From contig CBDHDL010000021.1 of NCBI GenBank assembly GCA_965261435.1, forward strand, positions 142,872 to 206,871: 64,000 nt of DNA, given 5' to 3'. A program made the translations under genes and the position numbers. Every line of letters starts with the position of its first letter. The stretch's first letter is position 1. Of this stretch, positions 1,967 to 28,637 are shown one piece after another. This DNA is from Candidatus Poribacteria bacterium (GTDB lineage Bacteria > Poribacteria > WGA-4E > WGA-3G). The notes under the pieces were generated by a model. It made no database searches and was not told the origin of the DNA. It saw only the letters and a program-made list of their open reading frames with translations.

Positions 1967-3514
1967 GTGACGTTTGATATTATTATTACTGGGGGGAGCA
2001 TCGTTGACGGAACTGGGAAACGAGACCCTTTTGTTGCAGATGTCGGTATACAATCCGATAGAATCACTGGGATAGGTAATCTTGAAAATGCAGAAACGAA
2101 CTGTCGCATATCTGCAAATGGATTGGTGGTGTGTCCTGGATTTGTGGATGTTCATGTGCATTCTGAGATTTCATTATTGGGAGGACGAGACCAACATGCA
2201 GCTGTGATGCAAGGGGTAACTACCCATCTTGCAGCACCCGATGGTTTTGGATGGGCACCACTTTCACCGAAGTTAGCACAGGAATTATGGCATTATACGC
2301 AATTTGCTTATGGTGATGATGAAGTGCCACTCAATTGGCAGACCCCTGATGAATATCTCAATATGTTTAATGATAGAATCCCTGCGAATCTTTATCCACA
2401 AGTCCCACACTGCGCTGTCCGTCTTGGTGCAATGGGATGGGATGCAAGACCCGCTACATCGGATGAACTGAAAACCATGGAACGTTCAACAAGAGCGTGG
2501 CTTGAAGCAGGGGCATGTTGTCTCTGTTTAGGCTTGGATTATCAACCCTCTGCAAATGCTGATTTAGATGAATTGGTCTACTTGTCCAAGGTTGCTGCAC
2601 GTTATGACGCAATATATGCTGCACATGTCCGCTACCAACTCATCGGTAGAAAGGCTGCTTGGCAGGAAACCGTAGAAATTGCAAAACAAGCCGATATACC
2701 TGTCCATATTTCACATGAACGGGTTGATGATGAAGTTGGTGCTATACTTGATCAGGTAGACCGTGAGGACATTGATCTGACATTTGAATCGTACCTTTAT
2801 CCTGCGGGTATGACACACCTTGCGATGTTGCTACCGATGGAATATCAGACTGGAACTCCTGAAGAGATGTTAGAGAATTTAGAGGATCCAGCTGTTCAAG
2901 CGAAGTCTCTTCCATATCTTCGCGAAAAATTGGGAGATGCCAATCAAATTATTGGCTATAACAGATCTGGAAGATACATCGGCATGTTACTCTTCCAAGC
3001 AGCGCAAGCTGAAGGTAAATCAAATGAAGAGTTTGCTTATGATTTCATTCGTGATGAAGCGGCAATTGAAACATCTATAATGCCGTGGTCTTCACCCGCA
3101 GAAGAAAATGAACGGATTCTAAACCGCACTGCAAGTCATCCCAGGATGATGATTGCCAGCGATGGCGTTTACAACATACCACATCCACATCCGAGAAGTT
3201 ATGGATGTTTTGTGCAGTATCTCGGAAAGTATGTAAGAGAAAAAAAGATTGTCTCGTTAAAAGAAGCAGTTTATAAGATGAGTGGTTTCCCCGCTGAACG
3301 ATTTCGGATCCATGATCGTGGTAAAATCGCTCAAGGACTTGCTGCGGACATTGTCATATTTGATCCAGAAACCGTTGCAGATCAATCTACTTGGTTTGAA
3401 CCGGTACAGCCACCAATAGGTGTAAATTGGGTATTTGTGAATGGGATACCTGTAATTGAAGATGGTGATGTCACTGATAGGTTGCCGGGGAAAGTTTTGC
3501 GTCATACAAGATAG
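1967..3514 (+). CDS. N-acyl-D-amino-acid deacylase (D-aminoacylase) family amidohydrolase
   Basis: N-terminal IIITGGSIVDGTG...ADVGIQSDRITGIG...GLVVCPGFVDVHVHSE matches the metal-binding HxH region of D-aminoacylases. 515 aa is typical for the family. Confidence 0.7.
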   Translation: MTFDIIITGGSIVDGTGKRDPFVADVGIQSDRITGIGNLENAETNCRISANGLVVCPGFVDVHVHSEISLLGGRDQHAAVMQGVTTHLAAPDGFGWAPLSPKLAQELWHYTQFAYGDDEVPLNWQTPDEYLNMFNDRIPANLYPQVPHCAVRLGAMGWDARPATSDELKTMERSTRAWLEAGACCLCLGLDYQPSANADLDELVYLSKVAARYDAIYAAHVRYQLIGRKAAWQETVEIAKQADIPVHISHERVDDEVGAILDQVDREDIDLTFESYLYPAGMTHLAMLLPMEYQTGTPEEMLENLEDPAVQAKSLPYLREKLGDANQIIGYNRSGRYIGMLLFQAAQAEGKSNEEFAYDFIRDEAAIETSIMPWSSPAEENERILNRTASHPRMMIASDGVYNIPHPHPRSYGCFVQYLGKYVREKKIVSLKEAVYKMSGFPAERFRIHDRGKIAQGLAADIVIFDPETVADQSTWFEPVQPPIGVNWVFVNGIPVIEDGDVTDRLPGKVLRHTR

Positions 3515-3528
3515 CGGAGACAAAATAT

Positions 3529-4971
3529 ATGGATAGGTATGACCTTACTATCATTGGTGGCGGGAGTGCGGGACTTGTGCTTGCAGTCGCGGGTGCTAAA
3601 CTCGGGAAAAAGACCGCACTGGTAGAAAAACATCGTCTTGGCGGAGATTGTCTCTGGACAGGATGCGTTCCTTCAAAAGCATTACTAAAGACCGCAAAAG
3701 TTGCTAATATCTTTAGACACGCAGATAAATATGGGATTCCTTCCATTGATGCAAAACCAGATTTTCAACGAGTCATGGACTATGTTCGCGGTACCCAGCA
3801 CTATATTGAAGAGGAACACGACAACCCCGAACGTTTCCGTGAAATGGGTGTTGATGTAATCTTTGGTGATGGATATTTTGAATCACGCAATACATTCGCT
3901 GTCAAGGACAGTGAAAATAATCAGTCAAGAGTACTGAATAGCAAGAAGTTTGTCATCAGTACAGGATCACGTCCACTGGTACCGAATATTCCTAATTTAG
4001 ATCACTGTGATTATTTGGACAGTGAAAATGTATGGGATTTGGAAGAACTACCACAACGGTTGTTAGTTGTCGGTGCCGGTCCAATCGGCATAGAATTAGG
4101 ACAAGCATTTCACCGACTCGGTTCAGCGGTGACGATAGTTCAGCGAAGTGACAGAATAATGAAAAAAGAGGATTCAGAGGTATCTGAAAGGGTGTTGGAG
4201 TATTTGCGTGCAGAAGGTATTGAAATCAGACTCAATATAGGAATTGATGGCGTTGAAAAACGCAATGATGAAATCGTTGCAACATTCGCTGGAACAAAAA
4301 ACGTTACCAACGAGGATAGACAAAAACGGACATTTGATAAGGTCCTGATTGCTATTGGACGCGCACCCAATATTGAGGGATTGGGGTTGGAAGATATCGG
4401 TGTTAGAACTGGCAAGAATGGAATTATCGTTAATAACAAACTTCAGACACATGTTAAGAACATATATGCTGCAGGCGATGTGATTGGACATTACCTATTT
4501 ACACATGTCGCGGCATTTCAAGCGCAATTGCTCATCAAAAACCTATTACTTCCTTTTAGCCAAAAGATCAACTATGCTGTTGTTCCTTGGACAACGTTCT
4601 GTGATCCTGAGGTGGCACGTTGCGGATTAACTGAGGAAGAAGCTCGTAAGAAATATGGTGATGTGGATGTTTTTAAACTGGATCAATCTGATGTTGATAG
4701 AGCGGTTGCTGAAGGTGAAACACTGGGGTTCACAAAAGTTATTACAAGCAAGTGGAGGGGTCGAATCTTAGGTGTTCATATAGTAGGTACAAATGCTGGC
4801 GAAGTCATTCATGAATATGTCTTGGCGATGCAGGAAGGTATACCTTTAAGAAAACTGAGTGGAATGATGCATGTGTATCCAACCTATTCTACCAGTGTAT
4901 TGCGGGTAGCAGCAAAGTGGTTGTCTGAAGGCACGTTAGTAAAATCTTTGAGAAAGTTGATAGGATCTTAA
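3529..4971 (+). CDS. class I pyridine nucleotide-disulfide oxidoreductase (dihydrolipoyl dehydrogenase / glutathione reductase family)
   Basis: FAD Rossmann motif IIGGGSAGLVLA; redox-active disulfide GGDCLWTGCVPSK (CxxxxC); second NAD(P) Rossmann motif VVGAGPIGIELG; C-terminal H-x-YPT interface motif (HVYPTYS). It sits 14 nt after the D-aminoacylase, probably in the same operon. Confidence 0.7.
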   Translation: MDRYDLTIIGGGSAGLVLAVAGAKLGKKTALVEKHRLGGDCLWTGCVPSKALLKTAKVANIFRHADKYGIPSIDAKPDFQRVMDYVRGTQHYIEEEHDNPERFREMGVDVIFGDGYFESRNTFAVKDSENNQSRVLNSKKFVISTGSRPLVPNIPNLDHCDYLDSENVWDLEELPQRLLVVGAGPIGIELGQAFHRLGSAVTIVQRSDRIMKKEDSEVSERVLEYLRAEGIEIRLNIGIDGVEKRNDEIVATFAGTKNVTNEDRQKRTFDKVLIAIGRAPNIEGLGLEDIGVRTGKNGIIVNNKLQTHVKNIYAAGDVIGHYLFTHVAAFQAQLLIKNLLLPFSQKINYAVVPWTTFCDPEVARCGLTEEEARKKYGDVDVFKLDQSDVDRAVAEGETLGFTKVITSKWRGRILGVHIVGTNAGEVIHEYVLAMQEGIPLRKLSGMMHVYPTYSTSVLRVAAKWLSEGTLVKSLRKLIGS

Positions 4972-5369: not shown

Positions 5370-8300
5370 TTATTCTCGCTCAACTCTTTCAACAATCAAC
5401 GTAACACCAAGTAGACGGGCAATTTTTTCAAGCTCCCCTATTCTATCAACATTATCAAAACCGATCGTTCCTCTTACATAGAATTCATCTACTTTGATTC
5501 CTTTGGTTTTATAGCCAGTGAACGGTTTTCTTGATACGATGTTAGGACGAACTCGCATTACTTTTTCCAGACCTAACTTTTTAAGCACCTCAATATAAGT
5601 ATCGTTACTGCGATAGTGATGAATAACTGTTTTATCAGACATAGTAACTTTAAGGTTCGTAAATTTCCTAAGTCCTCTGCCTTTTTCATAAGGTTGATTA
5701 CTGCCATTAGGTTCTTCTCCCTTCTGTTCATCACTGCTATTTAACGCAGCTAATAGGTTCTTCTCCCTTCTGTTCATCACTTTTCCAATCTGTTCATCAT
5801 TCTCAATAGATTCATCACTCTCAATAGGTTCAGGAACAGAGTTTTCAACAATTTGGGATTGTTGCTGTGCGTAAAAACTCAAGATTGCTTTTATATCCAA
5901 CCAGTGTCTTTCCACAAAACGAATGCTTGCTTCTGTGTCTCCCAGTTTCAAGGGCACTTCAAATTCACCAGAATTATCCGCATTGATCAACTGATTTTTC
6001 AAGGTGTTCATTACTTCAGGAACCTGTTTAACATAAGTCGTATATTTAGGTGAGCACTCTGGACAGAGTGCCAAAAACTGTGCCGCGTACTCTTTTGTGA
6101 AGTGACCTTTTAACATTTCAACAGCGTCAAAGTAGTAATTCCCACCGTGATATTTAAAAGGCATTTTATCTTGACATATCTGACAAACAACTTGGCCGTC
6201 TTCATTTCTATATTGCTCAGTAAGCCAGGTTTTTGGATCAATTGAACCTGTTGAAGTGCGAACGCTTCTAACTTTTTTTTCATATTCTTGGTTCGGAGCA
6301 TTTTCCAACTCTGTGATCACAAGTTTTCTGCGTCTTTCAGGATCCCGTACAGACCTAACTGGAAAAGGGGTGTCTTGAGGTGTTTGTACGAATGCAATAC
6401 TATTATTGGATGGTGACTGAAGGAACGATTCAATTCTTGCTTTTGCCATTGGGGATGCCTCAATAATCTTGTTCAGAAAATCTATTGAGACATCAATTTC
6501 TTGCGAGATTGTCTCAATTATCCGTTTCCTACTCATTGGCATACCAAGTTTTTTTGCCAACTGTTCATTTCTTATAAATGAATCAGGTAGATCATCAATA
6601 CTAATTTCACTTGGCTTGTGCATGTTGCCATCTACATCAGGCAACCAATTGGTGTCAATTAATAACCTACCAAAAGAATCAGATATTTCTTCCTCATTAG
6701 TACTATTTTCATAGTTTTTCTTGCTTGATTTCTCTACAGTCCCTTTAATACAGTCAGCGTTGTAAACAGCGATTTGATTCCATATAAAAACGCTTTTCTC
6801 AGCAGTTAAATCGTTAAGTGCATGTTCTAATCCGTCTACTTCTATGTTTGGATCAAATCCATCAAGCCCTCTACTATGATTGCCATGATAGTTATGAATA
6901 GTAACATAACCTTGCATATCTTTTTCTTTTCTTACGACTCGCACGGAATTCATAACTCCCAATTCTTTAAATAATTCTTCTGCAGAGGGAGGATAAAAAT
7001 CAAGATTGACAAAGCCGTAAGATGGATTTCCTTTAAAATATAGACGTAGATTATCATTACCAAAATAGAGTTGATCAGGCATGAAGTAAATGTTTCTGTC
7101 TAAATCAGGTTTTTCGGCAAGGATGAAAGGAGTATCCTGAAGGGCATTCCTAAGTTGTCTTTTCTTTTCTTCCGAATCTGTATCGTATGCTTTTATAATT
7201 CTGTCAAAATCGCGTCTATGCTCGGAAAATAAAATTATACGTGAGTCCTCCTTGTATTTTGGCGGGATAGTCTCAATAATTTCTGCAACACTATCGTACT
7301 CCTGAACTCCTAATGTTTTTAAGAATTCGTAGGCATCCTTATCTTGTGAGATTTCAAATTTCACTATTGGTCGTGAAGCGTCTACGCTTGTGTCATCTGC
7401 CAAATAGGCAGTTGGCTGTGAACGTTCTTGAGGAGGACTTACGTGTATGCAATTTTGTAAGCGTAAGATAGGTTTGGTACGCAGAACGCTATCACTATCA
7501 CGCCACAACGCTGGTTGATCAGACAAAAATTTATAAAATCTAACGAACCATTCGTCATCTTGTATTGAAAGAAAGTTCACAGAGATTTTACGTCCAAACA
7601 TAGCAGGTGTTACTTCCTCAATTTCTAATAAGTGCATAACATATTGACGAAGAGCTGGAGTCCGATCTGGTGTGATTTCATTAGACAGCCATTTAAGTTC
7701 ATCATCATCAGGACGCGAAAATAACTGACCTAATTGTGTATAGGACAGTATATTTCTAACTGCATTAGAACGCGTGAGTACAGCATTTTGTGCTGATACA
7801 AAAGCATTAGCATCATTCGTAGGAAGAAATTGTTCCACCAGAAACAAGTCACGCACTATCGTAAAAATGTGATAGAACAAACTATCTTCTTCGTTCTCAA
7901 GATCATTCAGACGGTTAGCCAGGGCTTCCAAAAATTGTACTTTTAAAAGTTCTCTTTCTTTTAAAAGAGGTAATAAATCAGAAGCAACTGAATTGGCAAC
8001 GCATTTCATTAACCAGTGATTCCAAGGCACATCTTGGAGGTCTTCACGCGAACTTGGTAAAATAAAATCTGCGTTGATTAAAAATGGGAAATTTGTATCT
8101 GATCGGATGGGTAGATAGGCAAAAATCTTCCCGACTGCTTTAGAATTTTGATCCAATGGAAAAGCTACTGAAACATCACGTTTATCTATTCCCTCTCGTT
8201 TTTCGTGAGAAATATTTGAAGGTCTATCAAAACGTTTGGTACATACTAAAAATTTTTCTGTATTAGAGTAGGGAATGCCTTGTTTTTCGTCTTTAACTAT

Positions 8301-9011
8301 AATTTCCACTTCTGGTCCTGCAGAATTGTCTTTTAAAATGGTAAGATTGTCACCAGAATCCGTTTCAATGCGAATTTCTTGGAGCGTAGAAAGAAATAGA
8401 ATTACTTCTGGTTCAATATCTCGCAGCATCTCTTCAATTTCCTTGTACTTAAAATTGCCCTTTGTCAATGGGAGAATAATATGAGTTTCAGACAAGTCTA
8501 AACCGTCTGGAAACTTGTGAGTCCATTGCGGTACAATATACCCAAGTCCTGTTTCTTCATCAAACTTCGGTAAACTGAAATGGTAACCATTTGAAAAAAT
8601 ATGCGGGTTGTCCGTAACACGAAAAACAGATTTGAAACCGATTCCTTTTTCACCTATATACCCTTGATCTTTTATCTTAGTAGTTTCACCAACTGCACAA
8701 ATTGCCTCTACGTTGTCGCGGTTAAAGCCAGTTTCATTATTTTGAATAATTAATGCACCATTAGATCCTGAGGTAAAGGTTGGATCCGTTCTTGTTAACC
8801 GAAAGGAAATATAGGGAGGTTGAGGACTGTGCTTTTCATACGAATTGTCTTCAGCATTCTGGATCAACTCAAAAATAAAATGAATATCCTTATTATAAAG
8901 GTCATCTGCCAAAGTTTCGATTGAATTGTTTAAACTCGTTTTAAGTTTCTCACTTCCCTCATGAAAACCTGTCCTAATTTTCTGAATATGTTCAAATTGT
9001 TCACTTGACAA
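5370..9011 (-). CDS. large GHKL (sacsin/MORC-like Bergerat-fold) ATPase-domain protein, C-terminal Cys-rich region; candidate conflict-system component
   Basis: N-terminal Bergerat motifs: N-box FELIQNAEDN; G1-like region IIQNNETGFNRDNV; G2 box GEKGIGFKSVF. 1213 aa. A Cys cluster sits near the C-terminus (CQICQ...CPEC). An acidic low-complexity linker contains short DNA repeats. The start is 66 nt downstream of the SNF2 helicase stop on the same strand. Confidence 0.65.
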   Translation of the reverse strand: MSSEQFEHIQKIRTGFHEGSEKLKTSLNNSIETLADDLYNKDIHFIFELIQNAEDNSYEKHSPQPPYISFRLTRTDPTFTSGSNGALIIQNNETGFNRDNVEAICAVGETTKIKDQGYIGEKGIGFKSVFRVTDNPHIFSNGYHFSLPKFDEETGLGYIVPQWTHKFPDGLDLSETHIILPLTKGNFKYKEIEEMLRDIEPEVILFLSTLQEIRIETDSGDNLTILKDNSAGPEVEIIVKDEKQGIPYSNTEKFLVCTKRFDRPSNISHEKREGIDKRDVSVAFPLDQNSKAVGKIFAYLPIRSDTNFPFLINADFILPSSREDLQDVPWNHWLMKCVANSVASDLLPLLKERELLKVQFLEALANRLNDLENEEDSLFYHIFTIVRDLFLVEQFLPTNDANAFVSAQNAVLTRSNAVRNILSYTQLGQLFSRPDDDELKWLSNEITPDRTPALRQYVMHLLEIEEVTPAMFGRKISVNFLSIQDDEWFVRFYKFLSDQPALWRDSDSVLRTKPILRLQNCIHVSPPQERSQPTAYLADDTSVDASRPIVKFEISQDKDAYEFLKTLGVQEYDSVAEIIETIPPKYKEDSRIILFSEHRRDFDRIIKAYDTDSEEKKRQLRNALQDTPFILAEKPDLDRNIYFMPDQLYFGNDNLRLYFKGNPSYGFVNLDFYPPSAEELFKELGVMNSVRVVRKEKDMQGYVTIHNYHGNHSRGLDGFDPNIEVDGLEHALNDLTAEKSVFIWNQIAVYNADCIKGTVEKSSKKNYENSTNEEEISDSFGRLLIDTNWLPDVDGNMHKPSEISIDDLPDSFIRNEQLAKKLGMPMSRKRIIETISQEIDVSIDFLNKIIEASPMAKARIESFLQSPSNNSIAFVQTPQDTPFPVRSVRDPERRRKLVITELENAPNQEYEKKVRSVRTSTGSIDPKTWLTEQYRNEDGQVVCQICQDKMPFKYHGGNYYFDAVEMLKGHFTKEYAAQFLALCPECSPKYTTYVKQVPEVMNTLKNQLINADNSGEFEVPLKLGDTEASIRFVERHWLDIKAILSFYAQQQSQIVENSVPEPIESDESIENDEQIGKVMNRREKNLLAALNSSDEQKGEEPNGSNQPYEKGRGLRKFTNLKVTMSDKTVIHHYRSNDTYIEVLKKLGLEKVMRVRPNIVSRKPFTGYKTKGIKVDEFYVRGTIGFDNVDRIGELEKIARLLGVTLIVERVERE

Positions 9012-9076
9012 AATAAATTCCTCCTACTATCAATAATTTCCATTTAAGAAATAACTTGTCCTAAAATATAAGGAAA

Positions 9077-12000
9077 TCACATCACTGCTTCCACTTCCAA
9101 AACCCCGGATGCCACCAGTTCAGTCGTAATATCCGCCTTTTCTGTACCTTCTTCTAATTTCTGAATACGTCTATTGTATTCTGCCTCAGCATTGGCGAGC
9201 TGCTGGTGGCGCATCCGCTGAATGTTCGGGTCTGGCACCTTCTCAATTTGCATTTCAAGTAGCCTTATCCGTTTCTGATGACTCGTTGATAAGCTCTCCT
9301 TTTGATATTCAACAATTTCCCTGCTGTGTTCTCTATGCTTCTCACGTGCTGCAGTCCACATGGCATGGTGCTGTTCTTCCAATGCTTTCTGATCGGTTAA
9401 ACTCACCTCTTCACGTATATCGTTATCCTCAGCCGTTTCAAGCAAAGGACTAATATGCGGTGTCAACACCTCTGATGAGGTGATAGGCATAAAAACCCAA
9501 TCCTCTTTATTGCCGAGATACTCCCATTTGTAGATAGCAAATTGATAACGCCCCATGGGGACTTGATCGGTTCTAACTTTTAGTGTTGTAACGATCTCTC
9601 CTTCTGTGTCCAACGTCCTTGATGCCTGCTTTACCAATGGATGTATTGGCATAATGAACACAGCTTCAGGCTGCAGCTTTGCACTTTCCGCGTCAAATGT
9701 TATCGTTAGGTGCTGTTCAGTTCCCTTCAACCAATTCTCCCACTCGCGATAGACCTTTGTCCTCTCCCTTGGCAGTTGTTGAAAATCACGCAATAAAGTG
9801 TTTCGCGCATCTTCCGAAAGTCGGAGTGTTTTGAGGGATTTTTCACCGAGAATAAACTCCTGCTCTGTTGCGATTTTCCGCTGAAGATAACGCGTAACAA
9901 GTCGTTGGATTGATGTGGGAGTTAACCAATAACTGGATGCTTCTTCAACCTCTTTCTCCATCCCATGCTTGGGTAACGGATCACTGAAAAGGTCCAATTG
10001 TTGTGCTTCCAAGTTTTCTTGCTCTTGTAATAATCGAATTTCGTTATCTTCCAGCTGTTGTAACTTAGCTATTCTTTCCTCTTGGGTCAATTCAAAATCT
10101 TCGGCTATGTTTTGAAGTTCGGTTGTGATTTCTCCAAGAATTTTTTCACTACCACCCAATGCACTTTCAAATACACCGATACGTAGTAGACATCGTTCAT
10201 AGATATCCGCATCCACGGTGTCCGGCGTGATTAAATTGTAGATGGTAACGCTCTCACTCTCTTGGCCTCTCCTGTCAATACGTCCTATTCGTTGTTCAAT
10301 TTTCATCGGATTCCACGGCAGGTCGTAATTAACAATACAGTCGCAGAACTGGTAATCTAATCCCTCACATCCAACTTCAGAAAAAAGCATCAGGTCTATA
10401 CAATCGTTCTCAGTCCTTGATTTTTCAAATCGCTCGCTGAGTTGGCGGCGTTCTTCGTCTGGTACGCCGCCGTGGATCATCCCTACGCGAACTCCATCCG
10501 CTTTGAGATGCTTGTAAAGATATGCAAGTGTGTGTCGGAAACTGCTAAAAACCATGATTTTGTTATTGGTACGGTTTTCCCTTTCAAGAACGATTGTTTG
10601 GAGTTTCTGCAATTTCAAATCATCTGAATCAAGTTTTCCCACTTTTTCAAGAAGTGTTTGGATCTGTTCTTGGATTCGTGTTACAGTCTCTTGTGTCGGA
10701 ATTGCATCGGCAGCGTCAGCTTCGGTCCACTCAAGTTCATCAAATTGGCGTTTCAAAATACCTTCAATGAATGGTTCAAGTCCATAAAGACAACTTGCCA
10801 ACTGTCGTCGGAGTGTTGTCATCATGAAGTTAACACTCTTATCACCGTGAAGGCTGCGAAATATCTCTGCCTTTGTTTCAAGTAGCACTTCATGAATTTC
10901 TTCCTGTTTTGGTGTCAATGGAACTTCTATGGTTTGCGGCTTCCGAATGGTGAATTCACCGATATCGCGGCGGCGGGTTCTATTGATTATCCGTGAAAAT
11001 GTGTGGAGTGCTTCCATATCGGTGATAAGTTGTACGCGTTCTTTATCGGTGATCTGTCTGTTATCAAGCTGCTTTCTGATTCGTTTGAATTCGGGGTTTT
11101 TTTTGAAAATCGCTTGTCCCCATGCGGTTGCAGCTGCCTGATCAAGATTCTCCTTTACGTGCCGTTCCCAATCTATTTGTCGTGCGCGAGCTGCGTCCAC
11201 TGCTTGATTGATGAACGGATTCGGTTCCGCCATGTGCTCAAAACTTTCGTAATCCAAAACAAGATCAGGACGGAGAACATTTAGCAGTACGAACAAGTCA
11301 TGGTTGCCAAGCTGGATAGGTGTAGCGGTTAGAAAAACAGCTGCTTCCGCATTTTCGCAGAAAAACCGGACAGCTTCGTGGTTTGCAGTGGTTTGGTTTC
11401 GGATATGATGTGCTTCATCTACTATGACGAGATCAAAGTGAGGTGGCGGATCGAGGTCTGCAAGTCCTTTTCCTGTCCGCCGTTTGCGGCTACCGTCCGG
11501 ACCGTAAAGCCGTATTTTATCTAACAGTGAATAGGGGAGAATTGCTTTCTTATATTGCTCCGGCCATTCGCCATCCAGATGGGTTTCTTCAATACAATAT
11601 TTCAAAGTCTTTCCATCCAAATGCATAAAATCTTCATCAAACCTTTTCATTTCGCGCTGCCATTTTGCCTCTGCCACCAATGGACGCGGACATATAATTA
11701 GGACAGATCTGATGTCACCTCGTGCTTGTAATTCACGTAGAATTAAACCTGCCTCAATAGTTTTTCCTACGCCAACACTATCAGCAATTAGTAGTCTTGG
11801 TTGGTCAGACTTGATAAACTTCAAGACTGGTCGATACTGATAGGGAATAAAGTCAATCCGTGCGGTGTTGAGTGAATACAGAGTTGATAGAGCGGGGGAT
11901 TGGATTTGCAGCGCGGTGAGGTAGGCATGAAATCCTTCACATGAAAGTTGTAGAGACTCCTCTTCAGTTTCAACTTCAAGACGTAACTGAGATGCGAAAA

Positions 12001-12160
12001 AGGTTTGAACCTTATTGTTGACAAAAACTTTAACACTGTTTACCGGGTTGCCCGATATTATTTCAACAATTGCCCCGCGGATAGAAGGATCTGATTTCAG
12101 GTATACAATTTGACCTGGTGAAAACTCTATCGATTTAATATCGTTTGTTTCCATAAGCAT
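9077..12160 (-). CDS. SNF2-family (RapA/HepA-like) DEAH-box helicase
   Basis: Motif I LLIADSVGVGKTIEAG; motif II LVIVDEAHHIRN; motif III FLTATPIQ; a helicase-C region with the SNF2-type motif VI QRIGRIDRRGQ. 1027 aa. First gene of a two-gene minus-strand operon. Confidence 0.8.
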   Translation of the reverse strand: MLMETNDIKSIEFSPGQIVYLKSDPSIRGAIVEIISGNPVNSVKVFVNNKVQTFFASQLRLEVETEEESLQLSCEGFHAYLTALQIQSPALSTLYSLNTARIDFIPYQYRPVLKFIKSDQPRLLIADSVGVGKTIEAGLILRELQARGDIRSVLIICPRPLVAEAKWQREMKRFDEDFMHLDGKTLKYCIEETHLDGEWPEQYKKAILPYSLLDKIRLYGPDGSRKRRTGKGLADLDPPPHFDLVIVDEAHHIRNQTTANHEAVRFFCENAEAAVFLTATPIQLGNHDLFVLLNVLRPDLVLDYESFEHMAEPNPFINQAVDAARARQIDWERHVKENLDQAAATAWGQAIFKKNPEFKRIRKQLDNRQITDKERVQLITDMEALHTFSRIINRTRRRDIGEFTIRKPQTIEVPLTPKQEEIHEVLLETKAEIFRSLHGDKSVNFMMTTLRRQLASCLYGLEPFIEGILKRQFDELEWTEADAADAIPTQETVTRIQEQIQTLLEKVGKLDSDDLKLQKLQTIVLERENRTNNKIMVFSSFRHTLAYLYKHLKADGVRVGMIHGGVPDEERRQLSERFEKSRTENDCIDLMLFSEVGCEGLDYQFCDCIVNYDLPWNPMKIEQRIGRIDRRGQESESVTIYNLITPDTVDADIYERCLLRIGVFESALGGSEKILGEITTELQNIAEDFELTQEERIAKLQQLEDNEIRLLQEQENLEAQQLDLFSDPLPKHGMEKEVEEASSYWLTPTSIQRLVTRYLQRKIATEQEFILGEKSLKTLRLSEDARNTLLRDFQQLPRERTKVYREWENWLKGTEQHLTITFDAESAKLQPEAVFIMPIHPLVKQASRTLDTEGEIVTTLKVRTDQVPMGRYQFAIYKWEYLGNKEDWVFMPITSSEVLTPHISPLLETAEDNDIREEVSLTDQKALEEQHHAMWTAAREKHREHSREIVEYQKESLSTSHQKRIRLLEMQIEKVPDPNIQRMRHQQLANAEAEYNRRIQKLEEGTEKADITTELVASGVLEVEAVM

Positions 12161-12208
12161 TCCTCACATTTCAAATTATGGTTAACTATAGAAGTAATTC
12201 AAGAACAT

Positions 12209-12440
12209 ATCTCATAAATCATTTATATTAGGACTTATGCAAAATGACCAAATTTCACCTATTTTCACATGATTCAGGTATGTCAGAATACGCGTTTGGT
12301 ATTCTGAATTGGTTAGGAAACCGCACCTACCGGGGGAGTGCGTAAGTCCTATATATGTTGAATTCTGAGTTGTTTGTGATGTGTATTAGACTGATACAAC
12401 GGACAGGGAGACCCTGTCCCTACGAAAATAGGTTTTGCAT
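12209..12440. repeat. degenerate copy of a dispersed about 110-bp element ending in the hairpin GGACAGGG-aga-CCCTGTCC followed by TACGAA
   Basis: gaacatatctcataaatcatttata... at 12209 and gttgtttgtgatgtgtattagactgatacaacggacagggagaccctgtccctacgaaaa at 12373..12432 match the copies at 12693..12805 and 47968..48060. Confidence 0.55.
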
Positions 12441-12692
12441 ATCGGGTGGGGAAACCCCCTTCCTACGAACGGATCTGCTCATCATTTGAGTGTAGACAGA
12501 ACACTAATATGTTTACTTTATACATTATACATAACTATCATATTTCAGTCAATATTCAAAAAACATATTAAATGTCTTAGTATGATATTATAGGATATAA
12601 TATCATACATTCCGCAGTTGTTTAATCAGATTTTGAGTATTTTAGTGGGGGAAGTGCAGTATCAGGAACGGTCTTGCATGCTTTAGGTGTAG

Positions 12693-12805
12693 AACGTATC
12701 TCATAAATCATTTATATGGTGAGTTTTTTGTTGTTTGTGATGTGTAATAGACTGATACAACGGACAGGGAAACCCCGTCCCTACGAAAAACAGGTGCTTT
12801 AATCT
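12693..12805. repeat. second copy of the same dispersed element (GGACAGGG-N3-CCCNGTCC hairpin followed by TACGAA)
   Basis: gaacgtatctcataaatcatttatatggtgagttttttgttgtttgtgatgtgtaatagactgatacaacggacagggaaaccccgtccctacgaaaaacaggtgct is nearly identical to 47968..48060 plus 48248..48285. Confidence 0.6.
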
Positions 12806-13007: not shown

Positions 13008-14462
13008 TCAACCCTTCACAACACCTATCGGACGCAAACGTGCGACTCGCCGTGAAAGTCCTGCTTCATCAACAACCCGGACTACTTCGTCGACATCTTT
13101 GTATGCTTCAGGTACCTCTTCCTGCAAGGTGCGTTTGCCTTCTGCGCGGACATAAATGCCTTTTTTCTCAAGGTCTTTCTGTATAGAACGTCCCTCAGTT
13201 AAGGCAATGGCTTTACGACGTGATAGCACTCTACCTGCGCCGTGACAGGTTGTCCCCCAAGTCTCTGCCATTGCACCAGGATTACCGACAAGTACATAAG
13301 ACGCAGTTCCCATATCACCCGGAATTAGTACCGGTTGACCAACTTTCTGATATTTTTCTGGGATCTCAGGATGTCCAGCTGGAAAAGCACGGGTTGCGCC
13401 TTTTCGGTGAATAAACAGCTCACGTTCCTCACCATCAACTTGATGTTTCTCGAATTTACCGATATTATGTGCGACATCGTATACGAGCTCCAATCCGAGT
13501 TCATCTTCTGTTGTATCAAAATACTTCATAAAGGTTTGGCGAACAAGGTGCATAATGCATTGTCGATTGTTCCATGCATAATTTGCACTACACGCCATAG
13601 CAGTGATGTAATCCTGACCTTCTGGGGAGTTGATTGGAGCGGACGCAAGTTGGCGATCAGGCAGGTTTATGCCGTATCTTTCTGTGACTTGAACCCAACT
13701 CTTTACGTGTTCATCGCAGATCTGATACCCGAATCCCCGTGAACCCGTATGGATCATGACACAGACATTTCCTACTTCCAATCCCATTGCCTCAGCCGCT
13801 TCCTGATAGAAGATACGGTCAACGACTTGTACCTCAAGAAAATGATTTCCTGAACCGAGTGTCCCGAGTTGGTTTTTCCCGCGTTCTAATGCGCGTTGAC
13901 TTGCGGCATCGGCACTTGCATGTTGTAGGATTCCTGTTGCTTCAGTGTATTTCAGATCATCTGGATGTCCGTATTCACGTTCAATTGCCCATTGCGCGCC
14001 TTTTTCTATCATGTATTTTTCTTCATTTAAGGATAGATTTATCTGTCCTCTTGAACCCACACCGCAAGGGACATTATCAAATAGTTCTCCGATGAGTCCT
14101 TTTGTTCTGCCTTGCAATTGTGTTGATTTTAGATTGGTTCTAATGAGTCGCACACCGCAGTTAATATCGTATCCAATACCACCTGGTGAAACAACCCCGT
14201 CAGCTTTTGGGTCGGTTGCTGCAACCCCACCGATGACAAAACCGTATCCCCAGTGTAAATCAGGCATAGCAAGTGAGTGTTTGACGATGCCGGGAAGATG
14301 TGCGACATTTGCGACCTGCTGCAATGCTTCATCACTTTTAGCTTGTTCAAGGAGTGCTTCGTTAGCATATATCATACCGTCCACACGCATGCCTTTCATA
14401 TAACTTTTTGGGATACGCCAACGGTAATCATCAATTTTTTGTAGTGTTACGTTTTGTGCCAT
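13008..14462 (-). CDS. rtcB: RNA-splicing ligase RtcB
   Basis: RtcB signatures GGIGYDINCGVRL and TTCHGAGRVLSRRKA. 484 aa. Confidence 0.9.
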   Translation of the reverse strand: MAQNVTLQKIDDYRWRIPKSYMKGMRVDGMIYANEALLEQAKSDEALQQVANVAHLPGIVKHSLAMPDLHWGYGFVIGGVAATDPKADGVVSPGGIGYDINCGVRLIRTNLKSTQLQGRTKGLIGELFDNVPCGVGSRGQINLSLNEEKYMIEKGAQWAIEREYGHPDDLKYTEATGILQHASADAASQRALERGKNQLGTLGSGNHFLEVQVVDRIFYQEAAEAMGLEVGNVCVMIHTGSRGFGYQICDEHVKSWVQVTERYGINLPDRQLASAPINSPEGQDYITAMACSANYAWNNRQCIMHLVRQTFMKYFDTTEDELGLELVYDVAHNIGKFEKHQVDGEERELFIHRKGATRAFPAGHPEIPEKYQKVGQPVLIPGDMGTASYVLVGNPGAMAETWGTTCHGAGRVLSRRKAIALTEGRSIQKDLEKKGIYVRAEGKRTLQEEVPEAYKDVDEVVRVVDEAGLSRRVARLRPIGVVKG

Positions 14463-14500: not shown

Positions 14501-15175
14501 TCACGCTTTTTGTGCCACCATACTTGCGAGGATCCCCAGGATCGTATCGCACTGGGATATATGATAGGCATTCATGTCAATGTAGAGTTTCTTTCCCTCC
14601 AATTTGAGGAAAAGCCAATTTATCCCGGATGTGATGGTTCCATAAATACAAGCGATGTTATTCCCTTCTTCAGCATTGAAACGTTGTGCAGCGACCATTT
14701 CTGCCACACACTGTCCTAATCCTACCAGAAAGTCATCCTTTTTCGCCTCAACAAGGAGGATGACTGGTGCCCTTAAAGAAAATTGACTTGGTGAAAGGCT
14801 TACCAAGAAATCGCAAACACCAGTAAGCCCTTCTTCAGCATTTACGTTAAAGTCGATCCCAGAAAAAAAACTGATGCGTCGTTCAAAGTGTTCCCTGAGC
14901 TCAACCAGAACATCTACAACAATAAGTTCTGATCTTGCTTTTTCAGTGTCAATAGCTAACGCTAAGGGGACATTTCGCTCCAACACCGAGGTGAGAAGTG
15001 TGCTTGGTGGTACAGGTTCTATATCGGCATAAATACCAGCAGCTTCTTCTGTTTTAAGGTTAAATGTTTTGCGTGCTTCCTCTAAGGTAAAATTGCTATA
15101 CGCCATGTAAGAGAATCTCCTTGGAAATAATTTACCAGTGTGAAAGGTCTTGCAACCCCGACGCACATCCAACAT
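14501..15175 (-). CDS. hypothetical protein with PD-(D/E)xK nuclease-like motifs
   Basis: IVVDVLVEL ... ILLVEAKKDD resembles the D ... E-x-K core of restriction-endonuclease-fold proteins. It lies immediately downstream of rtcB. The start may be the internal Met (MAYSNF...). Confidence 0.3.
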   Translation of the reverse strand: MLDVRRGCKTFHTGKLFPRRFSYMAYSNFTLEEARKTFNLKTEEAAGIYADIEPVPPSTLLTSVLERNVPLALAIDTEKARSELIVVDVLVELREHFERRISFFSGIDFNVNAEEGLTGVCDFLVSLSPSQFSLRAPVILLVEAKKDDFLVGLGQCVAEMVAAQRFNAEEGNNIACIYGTITSGINWLFLKLEGKKLYIDMNAYHISQCDTILGILASMVAQKA

Positions 15176-17264: not shown

Positions 17265-17741
17265 TTAATCGAGATTCAAGTACCCATACCAACTGTGTGC
17301 CTGCTTCAAGATATGCAAACACCTTTCTTGAATTTGATGAATCGTGTCAGTTGAAAATACTACCTCTACAGCAATATTTGGTGCGACATAGAATGACTTA
17401 TAATTGTAATCAGGAAGTCGCTCAGTTGAAATATAGGATAAATCTGGTATTAGTCCATATTCTCCAATTTTATATGCAGTGTATGGAAAATATATTCTTC
17501 CTATACTATTGTCACGAACATATTCACCTAAAAAGAAAGCAGTATTAGTACAAGCTCCTCCTAATTCCAATGTCTTTGGTTGCATATACACTAATTCTCC
17601 ATTAACATATTCATAACCCTCTAAGTCACTTTCAAGGAACTCCTCTAAGGTCATTACTGTCTTTCCAGGAGATAGGACATCTTGTTTGTAATGATAAATG
17701 TCTTGTGAATTCATGCATTTTCTCCAGTGTAAATTTGGCAT
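17265..17741 (-). CDS. Uma2 family (DUF820) putative endonuclease
   Basis: YEYVNGELVYMQP; GLIPDLSYIS; APNIAVEVVFSTD match the Uma2 PD-(D/E)xK pattern. The true start is probably the internal MTLEEF. Confidence 0.5.
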   Translation of the reverse strand: MPNLHWRKCMNSQDIYHYKQDVLSPGKTVMTLEEFLESDLEGYEYVNGELVYMQPKTLELGGACTNTAFFLGEYVRDNSIGRIYFPYTAYKIGEYGLIPDLSYISTERLPDYNYKSFYVAPNIAVEVVFSTDTIHQIQERCLHILKQAHSWYGYLNLD

Positions 17742-23192: not shown

Positions 23193-23825
23193 TTACTCAG
23201 GAAATGTGACGCGATCATAAATTTCATGCAAGGGGAGTTCACATTCAACTGAAATAAGTGGTAGACGTTCTTCAATGTTTTGAAAATCGGTGAGAATCCA
23301 ATTGTTCTCTTGGCGACTGAAACGTTCAACGCAAATTTTGTCTTGGGCAACGAGGATATATTCCTGTAAAGATGACAGCTGTCGGTAGTGTCTAAATTTT
23401 TCGCCGCGATCATACACCTCGGTTGAAGGAGACAAAACTTCTACAAGAATAATTGGATTGAGAAGTATATCAAAGACGTCATCTTCAAAACGCGGTTCTT
23501 CACAGACGACAACGACATCAGGATAGAAATAGGATAAAGTGCTGGGTGTGCTAACCCGCATTTCGTTTGCATAGGTTTCGCATTCACTGCCTTTCAGGAG
23601 ATTGCGAAGTTCACCAGATATATTACTGGTAATAAGATTATGTGCTCGACTTGCCCCAGACATTGCGATTATTTTCCCATTAACGTACTCACTTCTAACT
23701 GTTTCTGCGTCAGGTATTGCTTTACGTTCTAAAGTGATGTATTCTTCGGGTGTAAGGTATGTTTGTGCTGCAGGAGTTGCCATAAACTCCTCCGGTAATT
23801 CATTAACTTGTGCTGAGGCAAGCAT
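23193..23825 (-). CDS. Uma2 family (DUF820) putative endonuclease
   Basis: EYVNGKIIAMSGAS; YPDVVVVCEEP; NPIILVEVLSPST are classic Uma2 motifs. Confidence 0.7.
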   Translation of the reverse strand: MLASAQVNELPEEFMATPAAQTYLTPEEYITLERKAIPDAETVRSEYVNGKIIAMSGASRAHNLITSNISGELRNLLKGSECETYANEMRVSTPSTLSYFYPDVVVVCEEPRFEDDVFDILLNPIILVEVLSPSTEVYDRGEKFRHYRQLSSLQEYILVAQDKICVERFSRQENNWILTDFQNIEERLPLISVECELPLHEIYDRVTFPE

Positions 23826-23862: not shown

Positions 23863-25224
23863 TTAGATTGAATATATCATTCTACTTGCTTCTTCAAATT
23901 CTGGTTTGAGGGGATCAGTTGAGAGATACAACTTTTGATAAGGTTCATATAGCTGGATGTAACTCCAGTTTACTCCACATAGGACTTTTCCATTATTGAC
24001 GAGTTTAATAAACCTTCCACGAAACTTCGCGCGTGTGTTTTCAGGTGGTGAATGCATCGCCTTCCGTATCTGTGAATCGTCTAATATCCTTTCTATCAGA
24101 CCACGTTTTTCTGCTTTATAGAATATGCTATTTTCTTGTCGAATATTGTGGTATTCCAGGTCCAACCTTTTCACCTCTGCCGAATCCCAGTTTAGTGAAC
24201 GGTGTTTAACATAGGTCTCAATACACTTTCGCTTGATGACCCAATCAAGTTCACGGTCTAATAGCATTGGGTCTTGTTCCAAGCGTTTCATAACATATTC
24301 CCATCGTGTCATCACCTCATCAGTTGTGGGGTCGGACTCGACCTGTTCAAGATACCTTTTTGCACATTCAAAGTATCGCCACTGAAGTTCAATAGCAGAA
24401 AGTCGTTTTCCGTTGTCTAATTCAATTAGTCTTTTGCAAGTAATGTCATCTGAAATCTCATGTATAGCTTGTACAGAATTCCGTAGTGCGAAGTGTTCGT
24501 TGATAAAGTGGTCTTCAATCATCCGAAGGATAATTCCAGTAGTCCCAACTTTCAAGAAAGTTGCGTATTCGGACATATTAGAATCTCCGACGATGACATG
24601 TAGTCGTCTATATTTTTCTCTATCAGCGTGTGGTTCATCACGTGTATTAATTATGCCGCGTGCGGTGGTAGTAGCGATTGATATTTCTTCTCTGATATGT
24701 TGTGCGCGTTGTGAGATTTCGTAGAAACCTTGATCACTTCGTTTGACTTTTCCCGCGCCAGTGTAAATTTGTCGGGTGACAAAAAAAGGAATGAGTTGTG
24801 AAGCGAGTTGCCTAAAACTAACCTTTTCACGTTCCATCAGATAGTTTTCATGACAACCGTAAGTATTTCCGACTGTATCTAAGTTGTTCTTAAAGATAGA
24901 GATTTTACCTCTAAAACCGTCCGCCTTCATGCGTCGTTCTGCAGTCGTCGCGAGTCGTGTAACGATGCGTTCTCCTGCTTTATCGTGTGCTACCAAATCA
25001 ATGACATCATCACATTCAGGTGTAGCATATTCAGGGTGACACCCGATATCTTGGTAGAATCTTGCCCCGTTTTCTAAAAACACGTCTGGATACATGCGTC
25101 CAGAGATTATTTCACGGAACAGATACATCACCACATTCTGAACGGTAAGTTTTTTCCCTCTATGCTTCTCTGGTGTACAAATAATACCGTATTCAGTTTC
25201 CAAGCCATAAATTCTACGATGCAT
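23863..25224 (-). CDS. pafA: Pup--protein ligase PafA
   Basis: N-terminal IYGLETEYGI. Carboxylate-amine ligase fold shared with the Dop paralog at 27057..28538. It is the shorter of the two (453 aa) and sits distal to pup, as in actinobacterial loci. Confidence 0.8.
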   Translation of the reverse strand: MHRRIYGLETEYGIICTPEKHRGKKLTVQNVVMYLFREIISGRMYPDVFLENGARFYQDIGCHPEYATPECDDVIDLVAHDKAGERIVTRLATTAERRMKADGFRGKISIFKNNLDTVGNTYGCHENYLMEREKVSFRQLASQLIPFFVTRQIYTGAGKVKRSDQGFYEISQRAQHIREEISIATTTARGIINTRDEPHADREKYRRLHVIVGDSNMSEYATFLKVGTTGIILRMIEDHFINEHFALRNSVQAIHEISDDITCKRLIELDNGKRLSAIELQWRYFECAKRYLEQVESDPTTDEVMTRWEYVMKRLEQDPMLLDRELDWVIKRKCIETYVKHRSLNWDSAEVKRLDLEYHNIRQENSIFYKAEKRGLIERILDDSQIRKAMHSPPENTRAKFRGRFIKLVNNGKVLCGVNWSYIQLYEPYQKLYLSTDPLKPEFEEASRMIYSI

Positions 25225-25924
25225 GGTTCAATATCTCAGTTATATCTTCTATAGAAAACCTGCGAAACTTCCGTCTGCCAGCAGTAGCATCCAAGCACGC
25301 AACTTCTATGGTTTGTGGCGTAATCTCATACGGTTCTGACTCTTCAGATTCAATTTTTTCAAAGGTTTGAGATGCAAGTTGTATTGCATCCGTTAAGTCT
25401 AAACCATCGGCATAGTTTTCTTGTAGAATCTCGACAATTGCCTCTGCTCTTCCACCGATAACAGCGTAATTATCCACTTCACGATATGTTCCATCAAAAT
25501 CGATGTAGTATATCTGGTGTCCTATTGATGCGTCTCCATCTACTTCACAGACGAGCAATTCAATTTCCAGTGGTTTTGCATCCCAAGCCTGTGAAATTGT
25601 CCCCATGTGCTGTGAATATATATTAGTCAACCACTTAGCAGTAACATCCTCTCTAAAGTAGGTGTAGCCTTTCACCTCTGCTTCACGGATTCCTGCGACA
25701 CGCAATGCCTCATACTCAGCAATTCGTCCTGTAGATGCAAGTGCGATTTTGTCGTATATTTCAGATATCTTATAGGTTGTTCTGCGTGGGTTCTCAGCCA
25801 CCATTAAGAGACCATTTTCATAAGCTAAGACAACGACCTCTTTTGCTTGCTCTATACCTCGACGGACAAAGTCTCTTTTATCTTCCCAAATCTGCTCAGG
25901 AGAAACATAATAGGGTGTTGACAT
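25214..25924 (-). CDS. prcA: 20S proteasome alpha subunit
   Basis: 236 aa with no propeptide. Immediately downstream of prcB. Family-like N-terminal region YVSPEQIWEDKRDFVRRGI. Confidence 0.8.
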   Translation of the reverse strand: MSTPYYVSPEQIWEDKRDFVRRGIEQAKEVVVLAYENGLLMVAENPRRTTYKISEIYDKIALASTGRIAEYEALRVAGIREAEVKGYTYFREDVTAKWLTNIYSQHMGTISQAWDAKPLEIELLVCEVDGDASIGHQIYYIDFDGTYREVDNYAVIGGRAEAIVEILQENYADGLDLTDAIQLASQTFEKIESEESEPYEITPQTIEVACLDATAGRRKFRRFSIEDITEILNHAS

Positions 25925-25968
25925 TAATACTCCATGAAAGTTCTACCGTTAACCTGTAACTATCAAAT

Positions 25969-26760: not shown

Positions 26761-26762
26761 TC

Positions 26763-26960: not shown

Positions 26961-27056
26961 GTCGTGCTCCTTATTAGAATTACAGTTACGAAAACCTGTA
27001 TACCGATGTTATCTTACTTTGACAAGAGGGTTAAACATCTTTCAACAAGATTATTT

Positions 27057-28538: not shown

Positions 28539-28637
28539 ATTTCTTTGTGTCAGTCATTCAAATGTTTAGGCAAATGTTTAGGACAAAATTCCGTTGAAAA
28601 TCTAATCTAAAATACAATAGTATCATCAACTGATATT

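Follow-up and report, generated by a model that had tools for sequence, protein, structure and literature searches.

A DrmD-like SNF2 translocase paired with a sacsin-type GHKL ATPase in Poribacteria: a probable defence module related to Tiamat

We analysed 64,000 nt of DNA from a Candidatus Poribacteria bacterium (assembly GCA_965261435.1, contig CBDHDL010000021.1, positions 142,872 to 206,871), hereafter the window, whose own numbering is used throughout. It contains two neighbouring genes, encoding a SNF2 helicase (gene A) and a GHKL ATPase (gene B), which a preliminary description of the same letters had put forward as a candidate conflict system. As that description stated, the two open reading frames (ORFs), of 1027 and 1213 amino acids (aa), are co-directional, and both are intact on the minus strand. 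All the motifs that it listed (GVGKT, DEAHH, QRIGRIDRRGQ, ELIQNAEDN, GEKGIGFKSVF, CQICQ, and CPEC) are found in the translations. The genes are indeed adjacent, but the gap between them measures 65 nt (9012-9076) rather than 66.

9077-12160, minus strand: gene A, a DrmD/RapA-like SNF2 (SWI2/SNF2) ATPase/translocase (1027 aa, ATG start), from the ORF list and family searches
9012-9076, minus strand: intergenic spacer between gene A and gene B (65 nt), with AGGAGG at 9020-9025
5370-9011, minus strand: gene B, a sacsin-type GHKL ATPase of the TmtA (Tiamat) family, helicase-paired subtype (1213 aa, TTG start)

Two observations make the TTG of gene B a credible start: a Shine-Dalgarno (SD) sequence, AGGAGG, precedes it by 8 nt, and the homologues, which open with MSSEQFEHIQ, begin at the corresponding position. 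For gene A, the true start is more likely the second ATG (12154), two codons downstream and with GAGGA 6 nt before it, judging from the sequence. In other phyla, the helicase and GHKL genes abut or overlap, overlap being frequent.

Profile searches of both proteins, which the preliminary description had advised, matched SNF2-rel_dom and Helicase_C in gene A and SACS in gene B. Gene A has the composition of a SNF2 protein, with SNF2-rel_dom (E-value 3.5e-19) and Helicase_C (2e-21) in Pfam and with motifs I, II, and VI intact. Pfam searches of its N-terminal 100 aa, which include a small domain, and of its C-terminal 340 aa returned nothing significant.

11966-12133, minus strand: N-terminal small domain, gene A aa ~10-65 (FSPGQIVYLKSDPSIRGAIV...FFASQL), seen in the alignment and kept in all partner helicases
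11759-11773, minus strand: Walker A/motif I GVGKT, aa 130-134, invariant in a 15-sequence alignment
11405-11419, minus strand: motif II DEAHH, aa 248-252 (translation and 15-sequence alignment)
10262-10294, minus strand: motif VI QRIGRIDRRGQ, aa 623-633 (translation and 15-sequence alignment)
9080-10123, minus strand: C-terminal region, aa ~680-1027, matched by the C-terminal portions of the DrmD and RapA models

As assessed with PADLOC, gene A aligns over its full length (aa 12-974) with the DrmD model PDLC02623 (5e-115, 383 bits), followed by matches to BrxHI, HmaA, DpdE, and ZorD. It also aligns end to end with the NCBIfam models DrmD (NF038317), at 305 bits and thus below the equivalog cutoff of 610, and RapA, at 188 bits. 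Its best PDB match is RapA (1.6e-34). The ratio of nonsynonymous to synonymous substitution rates (dN/dS) of gene A against four orthologues is 0.10-0.13. The non-Poribacterial partner helicases are ~1200 aa long, and most of them carry a ~170-aa N-terminal Swt1-type HEPN domain before the small domain. In the helicase of the Thermodesulfobacteriota locus L028 (JBFMFO010000010.1), HEPN_Swt1 is matched at 1.4e-19 (70.9 bits, Pfam), and an RNRWAH (Rx4H) motif is conserved in the HEPN of these non-Poribacterial proteins.

The features of gene B, from its N terminus onward, are as follows.

6591-9005, minus strand: TmtA-homologous region, gene B aa 3-807 (PADLOC PDLC03972)
8022-9011, minus strand: Bergerat-fold ATPase module and beta-rich domain, aa 1-~330 (AlphaFold model, Foldseek)
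8844-8870, minus strand: motif I ELIQNAEDN, aa 48-56 (translation)
8628-8654, minus strand: ATP-lid motif GEKGIGFKS, within GEKGIGFKSVF at aa 120-130
5877-6269, minus strand: McrA-like HNH (beta-beta-alpha, zinc-knuckle) domain, aa ~915-1045, with CxxC...CxxC
5373-5876, minus strand: variable C-terminal tail, aa 1046-1213, consisting of an acidic low-complexity linker and a ~125-aa globular segment

The only Pfam family found in gene B is SACS (aa 39-142, 4.9e-14, 53.2 bits versus a cutoff of 32.8), and the NCBIfam sacsin N-terminal ATP-binding-like domain, NF047352, scores 71 bits versus a cutoff of 50. In PADLOC, aa 3-807 match positions 4-808 of the 1302 in the TmtA model PDLC03972 (1.1e-105, 353 bits), and seven more TmtA models also match. 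Among 57 homologues, E48, N52, D55, N91/N92, G95, G120/G123/G125, and T176 are invariant. An AlphaFold (AF2) model of aa 1-420 (pLDDT 83, pTM 0.84), when submitted to Foldseek, has human sacsin SR1 as its top match (1.5e-7), then GRP94/Hsp90 N-domains, MLH1/MutL, and SMCHD1. A gene B profile likewise matches sacsin SR1 structures, at 5.6e-8. MORC2/4 come below all of these, at 1e-4 to 6e-4, and HATPase_c_3, the Pfam module of MORC/paraMORC proteins, has no match in gene B; as far as the predicted fold tells, kinship with MORC is at the superfamily level only. The Bergerat boxes noticed earlier are thus confirmed, and they are of the sacsin type by the SACS and NCBIfam cutoffs and by Foldseek on the predicted fold. 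A large middle region had also been described as having no recognizable homology. This holds for Pfam and for the PDB, in which residues ~330-900 have no significant counterpart, but not for PADLOC, whose TmtA match spans aa 3-807. The dN/dS of gene B against the four orthologues is 0.13-0.32.

The C-terminal Cys cluster pointed out in the preliminary description is present and belongs to an HNH domain of the McrA type. This domain has the beta-beta-alpha fold and a CxxC...CxxC zinc site, with the ligands CQIC (943-946, within CQICQ at 943-947) and CPEC (983-986) encoded at nt 6054-6185. No nuclease domain had been seen by eye; a nuclease fold exists, but its catalytic His is replaced by Glu. 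The McrA sequence EVHHVI aligns to DAVEML in gene B. Among 104 close homologues, the general-base His position is occupied by Glu and the metal-binding Asn position by Gln in 98 each, and the terminal His by Ser or Ala. In 52 metagenome relatives, the His position holds Glu (23), Gln (17), or Asn (4), i.e. one of these in 44 of the 52, and never His. Because two members of a distant long subtype (L040 and L041) keep the HNH His and their siblings have Tyr, the domain appears to be ancestral but repeatedly de-catalysed. It is followed by a conserved RFVExHW motif (R1031-H1036). The dN/dS over the HNH-like segment is 0.29.

No NOV_C/DUF3883 domain was matched in gene B, even at E ≤ 1 on C-terminal fragments, and aa 1085-1213 of the tail match no Pfam family. 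The closest homologues run on into DUF7669, which gene B lacks and of which we found no remnant when looking 3' of the gene. Most family members end at ~1020-1050 aa, and other relatives have either an Hfq-like tail or none. Many Poribacteria homologues (the P0016-P0046 class; aa 1185-1235 in P0018) end in such an Hfq-like Sm fold, PF17209, with matches of 1.5e-6 to 5.6e-8, and NCBI annotates one of them as RNA chaperone Hfq. Together with the HEPN domains on partner helicases, these tails hint at an RNA connection of the system. One homologue, P0002 (1503 aa, 84% identical to gene B), has an extension before the GHKL module (residues 1-170) with an RNKISH (Rx4H) motif and a weak Pfam match to HEPN_Swt1 (E 0.014). 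The idea that this is the HEPN of the helicases is not supported, a profile of the latter giving no match to P0002.

Pairing of the two genes was assessed in two sets of loci. The first, anchored on the GHKL gene, comprises 45 loci from species-representative genomes, of which the 35 with at least ~3.2 kb upstream were tested; the second, anchored on the helicase, comprises 80 metagenome loci at 38-63% identity, of which the 65 with at least 400 nt downstream were tested. In 32/35 loci of the first set, a helicase (48-81% identical) lies directly upstream on the same strand, and in 63/65 loci of the second a sacsin-GHKL ORF starts within 400 nt of the helicase stop. The exceptions in the GHKL-anchored set are L016, where only a C-terminal fragment of the helicase is left, L046, and L047, the last a 168-aa GHKL fragment at a contig end. 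Conservation of the pair, a check that had been proposed at the outset, is thus evident, and pairing is nearly obligate whichever of the two genes serves as the anchor. Pairwise distances of helicases and GHKL proteins co-vary (Mantel r = 0.63, p ≤ 0.001, 69 loci), a correlation that is in part expected from shared organismal phylogeny. In an all-against-all clustering of neighbour ORFs, these two families alone were common across phyla, the remaining neighbours being conserved only within Poribacteria; around the pair there is no third gene conserved across phyla.

Carriers of the pair include Poribacteria, Thermodesulfobacteriota, Anaerolineae, Pseudomonadota, Bacteroidota, and Planctomycetota, as well as the archaea Methanoculleus and Methanomethylovorans. 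The pair also occurs in human-gut, soil, marine, and bioreactor metagenomes and on plasmids, the closest relatives of gene B being in Poribacteria metagenome-assembled genomes (MAGs). Searching with the region of the paired subtype (aa 381-1060) gave 2102 representatives of 50%-identity clusters at E ≤ 1e-3, a figure that falls to 690 at E ≤ 1e-30. In a scan of viral contigs there were only 6 distant relatives, at 24-31% identity, with no sign of a phage-borne subtype. In five loci (L010, L012, L014, L016, and L027), the helicase and/or GHKL gene is in fragments, L016 having just a remnant; either frameshifts from assembly or true pseudogenization may account for this, and in the latter case the pair would be dispensable. 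In L001 (13842-17027) and L019 (13623-16928), a second, divergent sacsin/TmtA-like paralogue (~25% identical, TmtA 5e-61) follows the paired GHKL gene, and in L001 two small ORFs come after it.

In the window, the pair lies between rtcB and oxidoreductase genes, a layout shared by four Poribacteria MAGs (L004, L005, L012, and L027). The immediate surroundings are listed here.

13008-14462, minus strand: rtcB, RNA 3'-phosphate/5'-OH ligase (Pfam 1.7e-174), directly upstream of gene A, likewise in L004, L005, L012, and L027
12161-13007: upstream spacer between rtcB and gene A (847 nt)
12343-12428 and 12704-12789: 86-nt repeat in the upstream spacer, two copies, 87% identical, forming a GGGACAGGG...CCCTGTCC hairpin
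12449-12469: third, short hairpin copy in the upstream spacer
12202-12228 and 12691-12717: 27-nt repeat in the upstream spacer
12524-12552, minus strand: sigma-70-like promoter TTGACT-17-TATAAT (11/12), the best consensus match upstream of the operon, by consensus only
3529-4971, plus strand: pyridine-nucleotide disulphide oxidoreductase (Pyr_redox), convergent, the immediate 3' neighbour of gene B
1967-3514, plus strand: amidohydrolase, the next 3' neighbour
66-1544: coiled-coil ORFs, further from the pair

The 3' boundary had been placed at coiled-coil/membrane genes, which is incorrect, as the actual neighbours are the Pyr_redox oxidoreductase and the amidohydrolase. On the 5' side, hairpin repeats do occur in the 847 nt, but the repeat content is modest for a flank that had been called repeat-rich. 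Between the window and L004, the sequence of this orthologous spacer is not conserved, and fragments of the window's spacer recur in that of L005 in other orientations. Promoter-like sites in the upstream region are not enriched over shuffled sequences. RtcB repairs RNA ends of the kind made by HEPN RNases. Its linkage to the pair is nevertheless probably plain synteny, because the helicases of this clade lack HEPN and the linkage is absent outside the clade.

Other genes of the window deserve mention in their own right. Between a GFO/IDH/MocA oxidoreductase gene and rtcB, a 224-aa ORF (14501-15175, minus strand) matches PADLOC PDLC01472 (3e-49), a Cas-associated PD-(D/E)xK model, and no Pfam family. 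Its absence from the otherwise syntenic L004, where the flanking genes are 43 nt apart, suggests that a nuclease gene has been inserted specifically in the window. A Uma2-family (DUF820) putative restriction-endonuclease-like gene is found at 17265-17741 (minus strand) and a second ORF, alike by eye, at 23193-23825 (minus strand); L012 has three tandem copies at the corresponding position. A Pup-proteasome cluster (23863-30434, minus strand) contains two Pup-ligase/deamidase-like genes, candidate proteasome-subunit ORFs, and a Mpa/ARC AAA ATPase with proteasomal OB domains, next to which is recA (30564-31727). Four consecutive large genes (34941-45760, plus strand) encode leucine-rich repeat, cadherin, and bacterial Ig-domain proteins, one with a Por_Secre_tail (type IX secretion system sorting signal).

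Elsewhere, the surroundings of the pair differ. Poribacteria themselves carry it in at least two different genomic contexts. On plasmid pMETHO01 of Methanomethylovorans, where the pair is METHO_RS12415/12410, its neighbours are RelE, a restriction endonuclease, and a DEAD-helicase/methylase (Type III restriction-modification (R-M)). On a Rhizobium plasmid, p2 of Rhizobium bangladeshense, the pair (J2J98_RS24650/24655) comes after an ABC-3C system, and in L050 its flanks hold a group II intron, a transposase, and a Type ISP R-M enzyme. In three Poribacteria loci (L011 7890-9578, L020 7828-9585, and L026 7649-9667), the two genes are separated by one for a 560-670-aa AAA_15/AAA_21 (AbiEii/OLD/SMC-like) ATPase, perhaps another defence gene nested within the pair or else a third, facultative component. 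The neighbours in distant members are suggestive of defence-island behaviour. The preliminary description had held that a conserved housekeeping context would speak against a role in defence, and such a context is indeed what the window clade shows, whereas in distant members the pair is found beside defence genes.

Taken together, these findings make it probable that the pair is a defence module, a helicase-dependent relative of the Tiamat anti-phage system. Its domain identities, near-obligate pairing, patchy distribution across bacteria and archaea, and purifying selection are observed, and both genes of the window are intact with dN/dS of 0.10-0.32. The homology of gene B to TmtA and of gene A to DrmD, as read from their sequences, supports a defence role. 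The original notion of a conflict system is therefore borne out by the pairing, the spread across phyla, and the defence neighbours elsewhere, although not by the window locus itself, whose context is housekeeping.

Several observations weigh against this interpretation. The TmtA match covers 62% of the model only, and in the literature searched we found no experiments on the helicase-paired subtype. The sacsin SR1 crystal construct reportedly showed no detectable nucleotide binding, so ATPase activity of the sacsin type is not to be assumed. The window copy appears to consist of two intact ATPases (predicted) with no canonical nuclease active site: Poribacterial helicases, gene A included, align without the N-terminal HEPN, no HEPN-like ORF occurs in any of the six frames of the 64-kb window, and in the HNH-like domain of gene B the general-base His is Glu965, the Asn is Gln978, and the terminal His is lost. 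The 64 kb of the window contain no defence island, the flanks being rtcB, oxidoreductases, PPDK, Pup-proteasome genes, and recA, and because the locus is syntenic in four related MAGs vertical inheritance fits. Many loci in other phyla are also flanked by housekeeping genes. Finally, the 102 neighbours surveyed at 24 non-Poribacterial loci, among which UvrD-like helicases, ResIII/HsdR, and PD-(D/E)xK proteins are most recurrent (PADLOC and Pfam), are family counts without a background model and not an enrichment statistic.

Part of this evidence suits a domesticated, non-immune pair in Poribacteria, in which a nuclease-free RapA-like remodeller and a GHKL clamp/chaperone would act on the host's own chromosome or on its RNA polymerase, for instance to recycle transcription complexes, organize the nucleoid, or silence resident elements. 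The housekeeping flanks and synteny of the window clade, the loss of HEPN and of the HNH general base, the strong purifying selection, the end-to-end alignment of the helicase with RapA (188 bits; PDB 1.6e-34), and the Hfq-like tails of some relatives are all as expected from it. We nevertheless consider domestication unlikely. The His-less HNH is also seen in plasmid-borne and defence-island copies and is thus not specific to a domesticated lineage, the pair is spread patchily across phyla and archaea, some of its copies in Poribacteria, where it has at least two contexts, come with an additional SACS paralogue or with an AbiEii-like ATPase gene inserted, and fragmented copies are what dispensable genes would leave. 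The same losses could instead mark an inactive relic, i.e. a decaying Tiamat-like locus deprived of its effector domains, with HEPN absent, the HNH His-less, the DUF7669 of the closest homologues gone without a downstream remnant, and repeats inserted in the upstream spacer. This is highly improbable given intact ORFs of 1027 and 1213 aa, dN/dS of 0.10-0.32 against four orthologues (0.29 in the HNH-like segment), invariant ATPase motifs throughout, and the strong SD of gene B. Moreover, across the family as a whole most members have an HNH without this His, which is hence no recent lesion.

It is also very unlikely that the pair is just one component of a larger DISARM-, BREX-, or R-M-like system, with the genes for its methyltransferase and nuclease partners at other sites in the genome. 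The best models of the helicase (DrmD, BrxHI, HmaA, and DpdE) and HsdR/ResIII neighbours in 3-5 of the 24 loci point that way, as does the prediction of Iyer et al. 2008 (PMC2292703) that operons of MORC with SWI2/SNF2 (and HNH) are R-M-like. However, neither methyltransferase genes nor those for DrmA/B/C or Brx proteins are conserved around the pair in the 45 genome loci, the 80 metagenome loci, or the plasmids, of which there are two. The NCBIfam DrmD score amounts to half of the equivalog cutoff, and the unit that moves between phyla is the pair alone. In particular, a classical R-M system, which the preliminary description had already ruled out for want of an adjacent methyltransferase, is rejected, as no DNA methyltransferase is linked in the window or conserved in related loci. 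That gene B might be a canonical sensor histidine kinase or two-component protein beside an unrelated helicase, an identity that had been named as fatal to the conflict-system proposal, has next to no probability. Its sole support is the Bergerat fold, which is shared with histidine kinases. We found no HisKA/DHp, no HATPase_c, and no receiver partner, Foldseek reached histidine kinases only at E > 0.1 versus 1e-7 for sacsin, and the helicase coupling is near-obligate.

If the pair is a helicase-dependent relative of Tiamat, how might it work? GHKL modules of the MutL, MORC, SMCHD1, and Hsp90 type are ATP-gated dimeric clamps. By analogy with these, gene B would dimerize on ATP binding into a gated clamp, and gene A would translocate on double-stranded nucleic acid. 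We infer a physical complex of the two proteins, with a DNA target, an effector step, and a defence phenotype. The SNF2 motor would scan, or be recruited to, invading DNA or its transcription/replication complexes, it would then load or activate the GHKL clamp, and the complex would block the invader, while the McrA-derived zinc-knuckle HNH domain and the variable tail might hold or read nucleic acid. In most non-Poribacterial relatives, killing would probably be by the Rx4H HEPN RNase fused to the helicase, and in some an intact HNH could add cleavage, so that the output of HEPN with or without HNH would be cleavage of RNA and/or DNA, possibly as abortive infection. Because the window copy has no HEPN and has Glu for the HNH His, it would need another output route and therefore one of three options: interference without canonical nuclease chemistry (ATP-driven clamping, compaction, or polymerase eviction), a non-canonical active site (the conserved E965, Q978, and H1036), or an unlinked effector.

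A bolder joint reading, which is tentative and rather doubtful, is that SNF2 and sacsin-GHKL pairs form a distinct and widespread class of immune/silencing machine whose core action is perhaps non-nucleolytic. In it, an ATP-gated GHKL clamp, loaded by the translocase, would use its inactivated HNH zinc domain to read nucleic acid, and the output would come from exchangeable add-ons (HEPN RNase, Hfq-like, DUF7669, or intact HNH). The Poribacteria copies would then be effector-less and restrict or silence foreign DNA by clamping/compaction, like MORC/SMCHD1 silencing, and the family might be the prokaryotic source of eukaryotic sacsin (GHKL and HEPN) and NO VEIN (GHKL and NOV_C).

The helicase-dependent relative of Tiamat that we favour would join, in a minimal two-gene unit, a system of unexplained mechanism with DrmD-type SNF2 motors, which are essential in DISARM, ARMADA, and ietHAS, and the pair is thus an experimental entry point into the function of both. 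Its natural variants, with or without HEPN, with the HNH His kept or replaced, and with NOV_C instead of a helicase, are evolution's own experiment and therefore make two questions testable, namely how sacsin-type GHKL proteins act on nucleic acids and what the SNF2 partner contributes. The family also places the ATPase modules of human sacsin, which is mutated in ARSACS, and of plant NO VEIN in a prokaryotic setting. As it is common in sponge symbionts (Poribacteria), in gut, soil, and marine metagenomes, and on plasmids, current annotation tools for defence systems probably label it plain Tiamat or miss the partner.

Among known systems, Tiamat is the closest to gene B. According to the passage of PMC12926258 that cites Millman et al. 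2022, Tiamat (TmtA) is a validated single-gene anti-phage system; reviews list its mechanism as unknown, and in a 2024 survey it counts among the single-gene systems of the PD-(D/E)xK type. Gene B shares with it the sacsin-type GHKL N-terminal module, ~800 aa of common architecture (1e-105; PADLOC PDLC03964-03972), and a wide distribution across phyla. Canonical TmtA, however, is 1400-1650 aa long, stands alone, and ends in NOV_C/DUF3883, whereas gene B lacks NOV_C, ends in a His-less HNH-like domain and a tail, and belongs to a subtype coupled to a SNF2 gene in 63/65 and 32/35 loci, which is not the arrangement of a single-gene system. This difference is drawn within our own set of loci. Of the three helicase-less GHKL loci, the two that were scanned, L046 and L045, both have a C-terminal NOV_C/DUF3883, and L046, which matches TmtA PDLC03966 end to end (798 bits), has no such helicase within 10 kb; by their sequences, both are canonical standalone Tiamat. 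In contrast, all helicase-paired proteins tested lack NOV_C and have the HNH-like domain. That no characterized system has exactly this architecture, as had been supposed, agrees with the pair being apparently unnamed, but gene B falls in the TmtA/Tiamat family. The literature searched, the coverage of which is incomplete and no proof of novelty, yielded no account of a Tiamat relative that is paired with a helicase and of the HNH type, nor does the Millman preprint, which predates the system names, describe the pair.

Gene A resembles DrmD of class 1 DISARM, ArmA of ARMADA II, and IetH of ietHAS in being a DrmD-like motor of RapA-like build, a type recruited to differing effector modules. In ietHAS and ARMADA II, both validated systems, such motors are essential accessory parts: Walker A and DEAH mutants of IetH lose defence, deletion of ArmA abolishes ARMADA II protection, and in class 1 DISARM joint deletion of drmD and drmMI nearly abolished protection against one phage. 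The present pair differs from these systems in that its partner is a GHKL ATPase, with no DrmA/B/C, DrmMI, ArmB-D, or IetAS genes nearby; drmA (helicase), drmB (DUF1998), drmC (PLD), and drmMI are all missing from the window flanks, and none is conserved in 125 related loci. Gene A also scores below the NCBIfam equivalog cutoff of 610, and many of its orthologues have an N-terminal HEPN.

The prokaryotic MORC/paraMORC operons that Iyer, Abhiman, and Aravind predicted in 2008 to be R-M-like (PMC2292703) share with the pair a GHKL ATPase, a superfamily II (SNF2) helicase, an HNH fold, and a predicted conflict role. Here, however, the GHKL is of the sacsin type, which the 2008 paper does not mention, the HNH forms part of the GHKL protein itself and has lost its catalytic His, and no methylase is linked. 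Anantharaman et al. 2013 noted HEPN-SNF2 fusions and the HEPN of sacsin, but not this pair. Eukaryotic sacsin, with its SRR Hsp90-like modules, DnaJ, and HEPN, has the same GHKL subtype, and its combination of ATPase and HEPN is mirrored by the HEPN-SNF2 and GHKL operon, just as the architecture of plant NO VEIN (sacsin-like GHKL and NOV_C) mirrors standalone TmtA. Neither has a SNF2 partner or HNH, sacsin is described as a chaperone, and its HEPN is of another family than the Swt1-type HEPN of the bacterial helicases. As for the modification-dependent HNH endonucleases EcoKMcrA and TagI, gene B differs from them in having lost the general-base and terminal His and in lacking an N-terminal 5-methylcytosine reader of the McrA type.

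Both component families have thus been catalogued, and conflict operons of GHKL, SNF2, and HNH were already predicted in 2008. The pair is not a categorically new system but a new, apparently unnamed variant that joins TmtA and a DrmD-like SNF2 ATPase.

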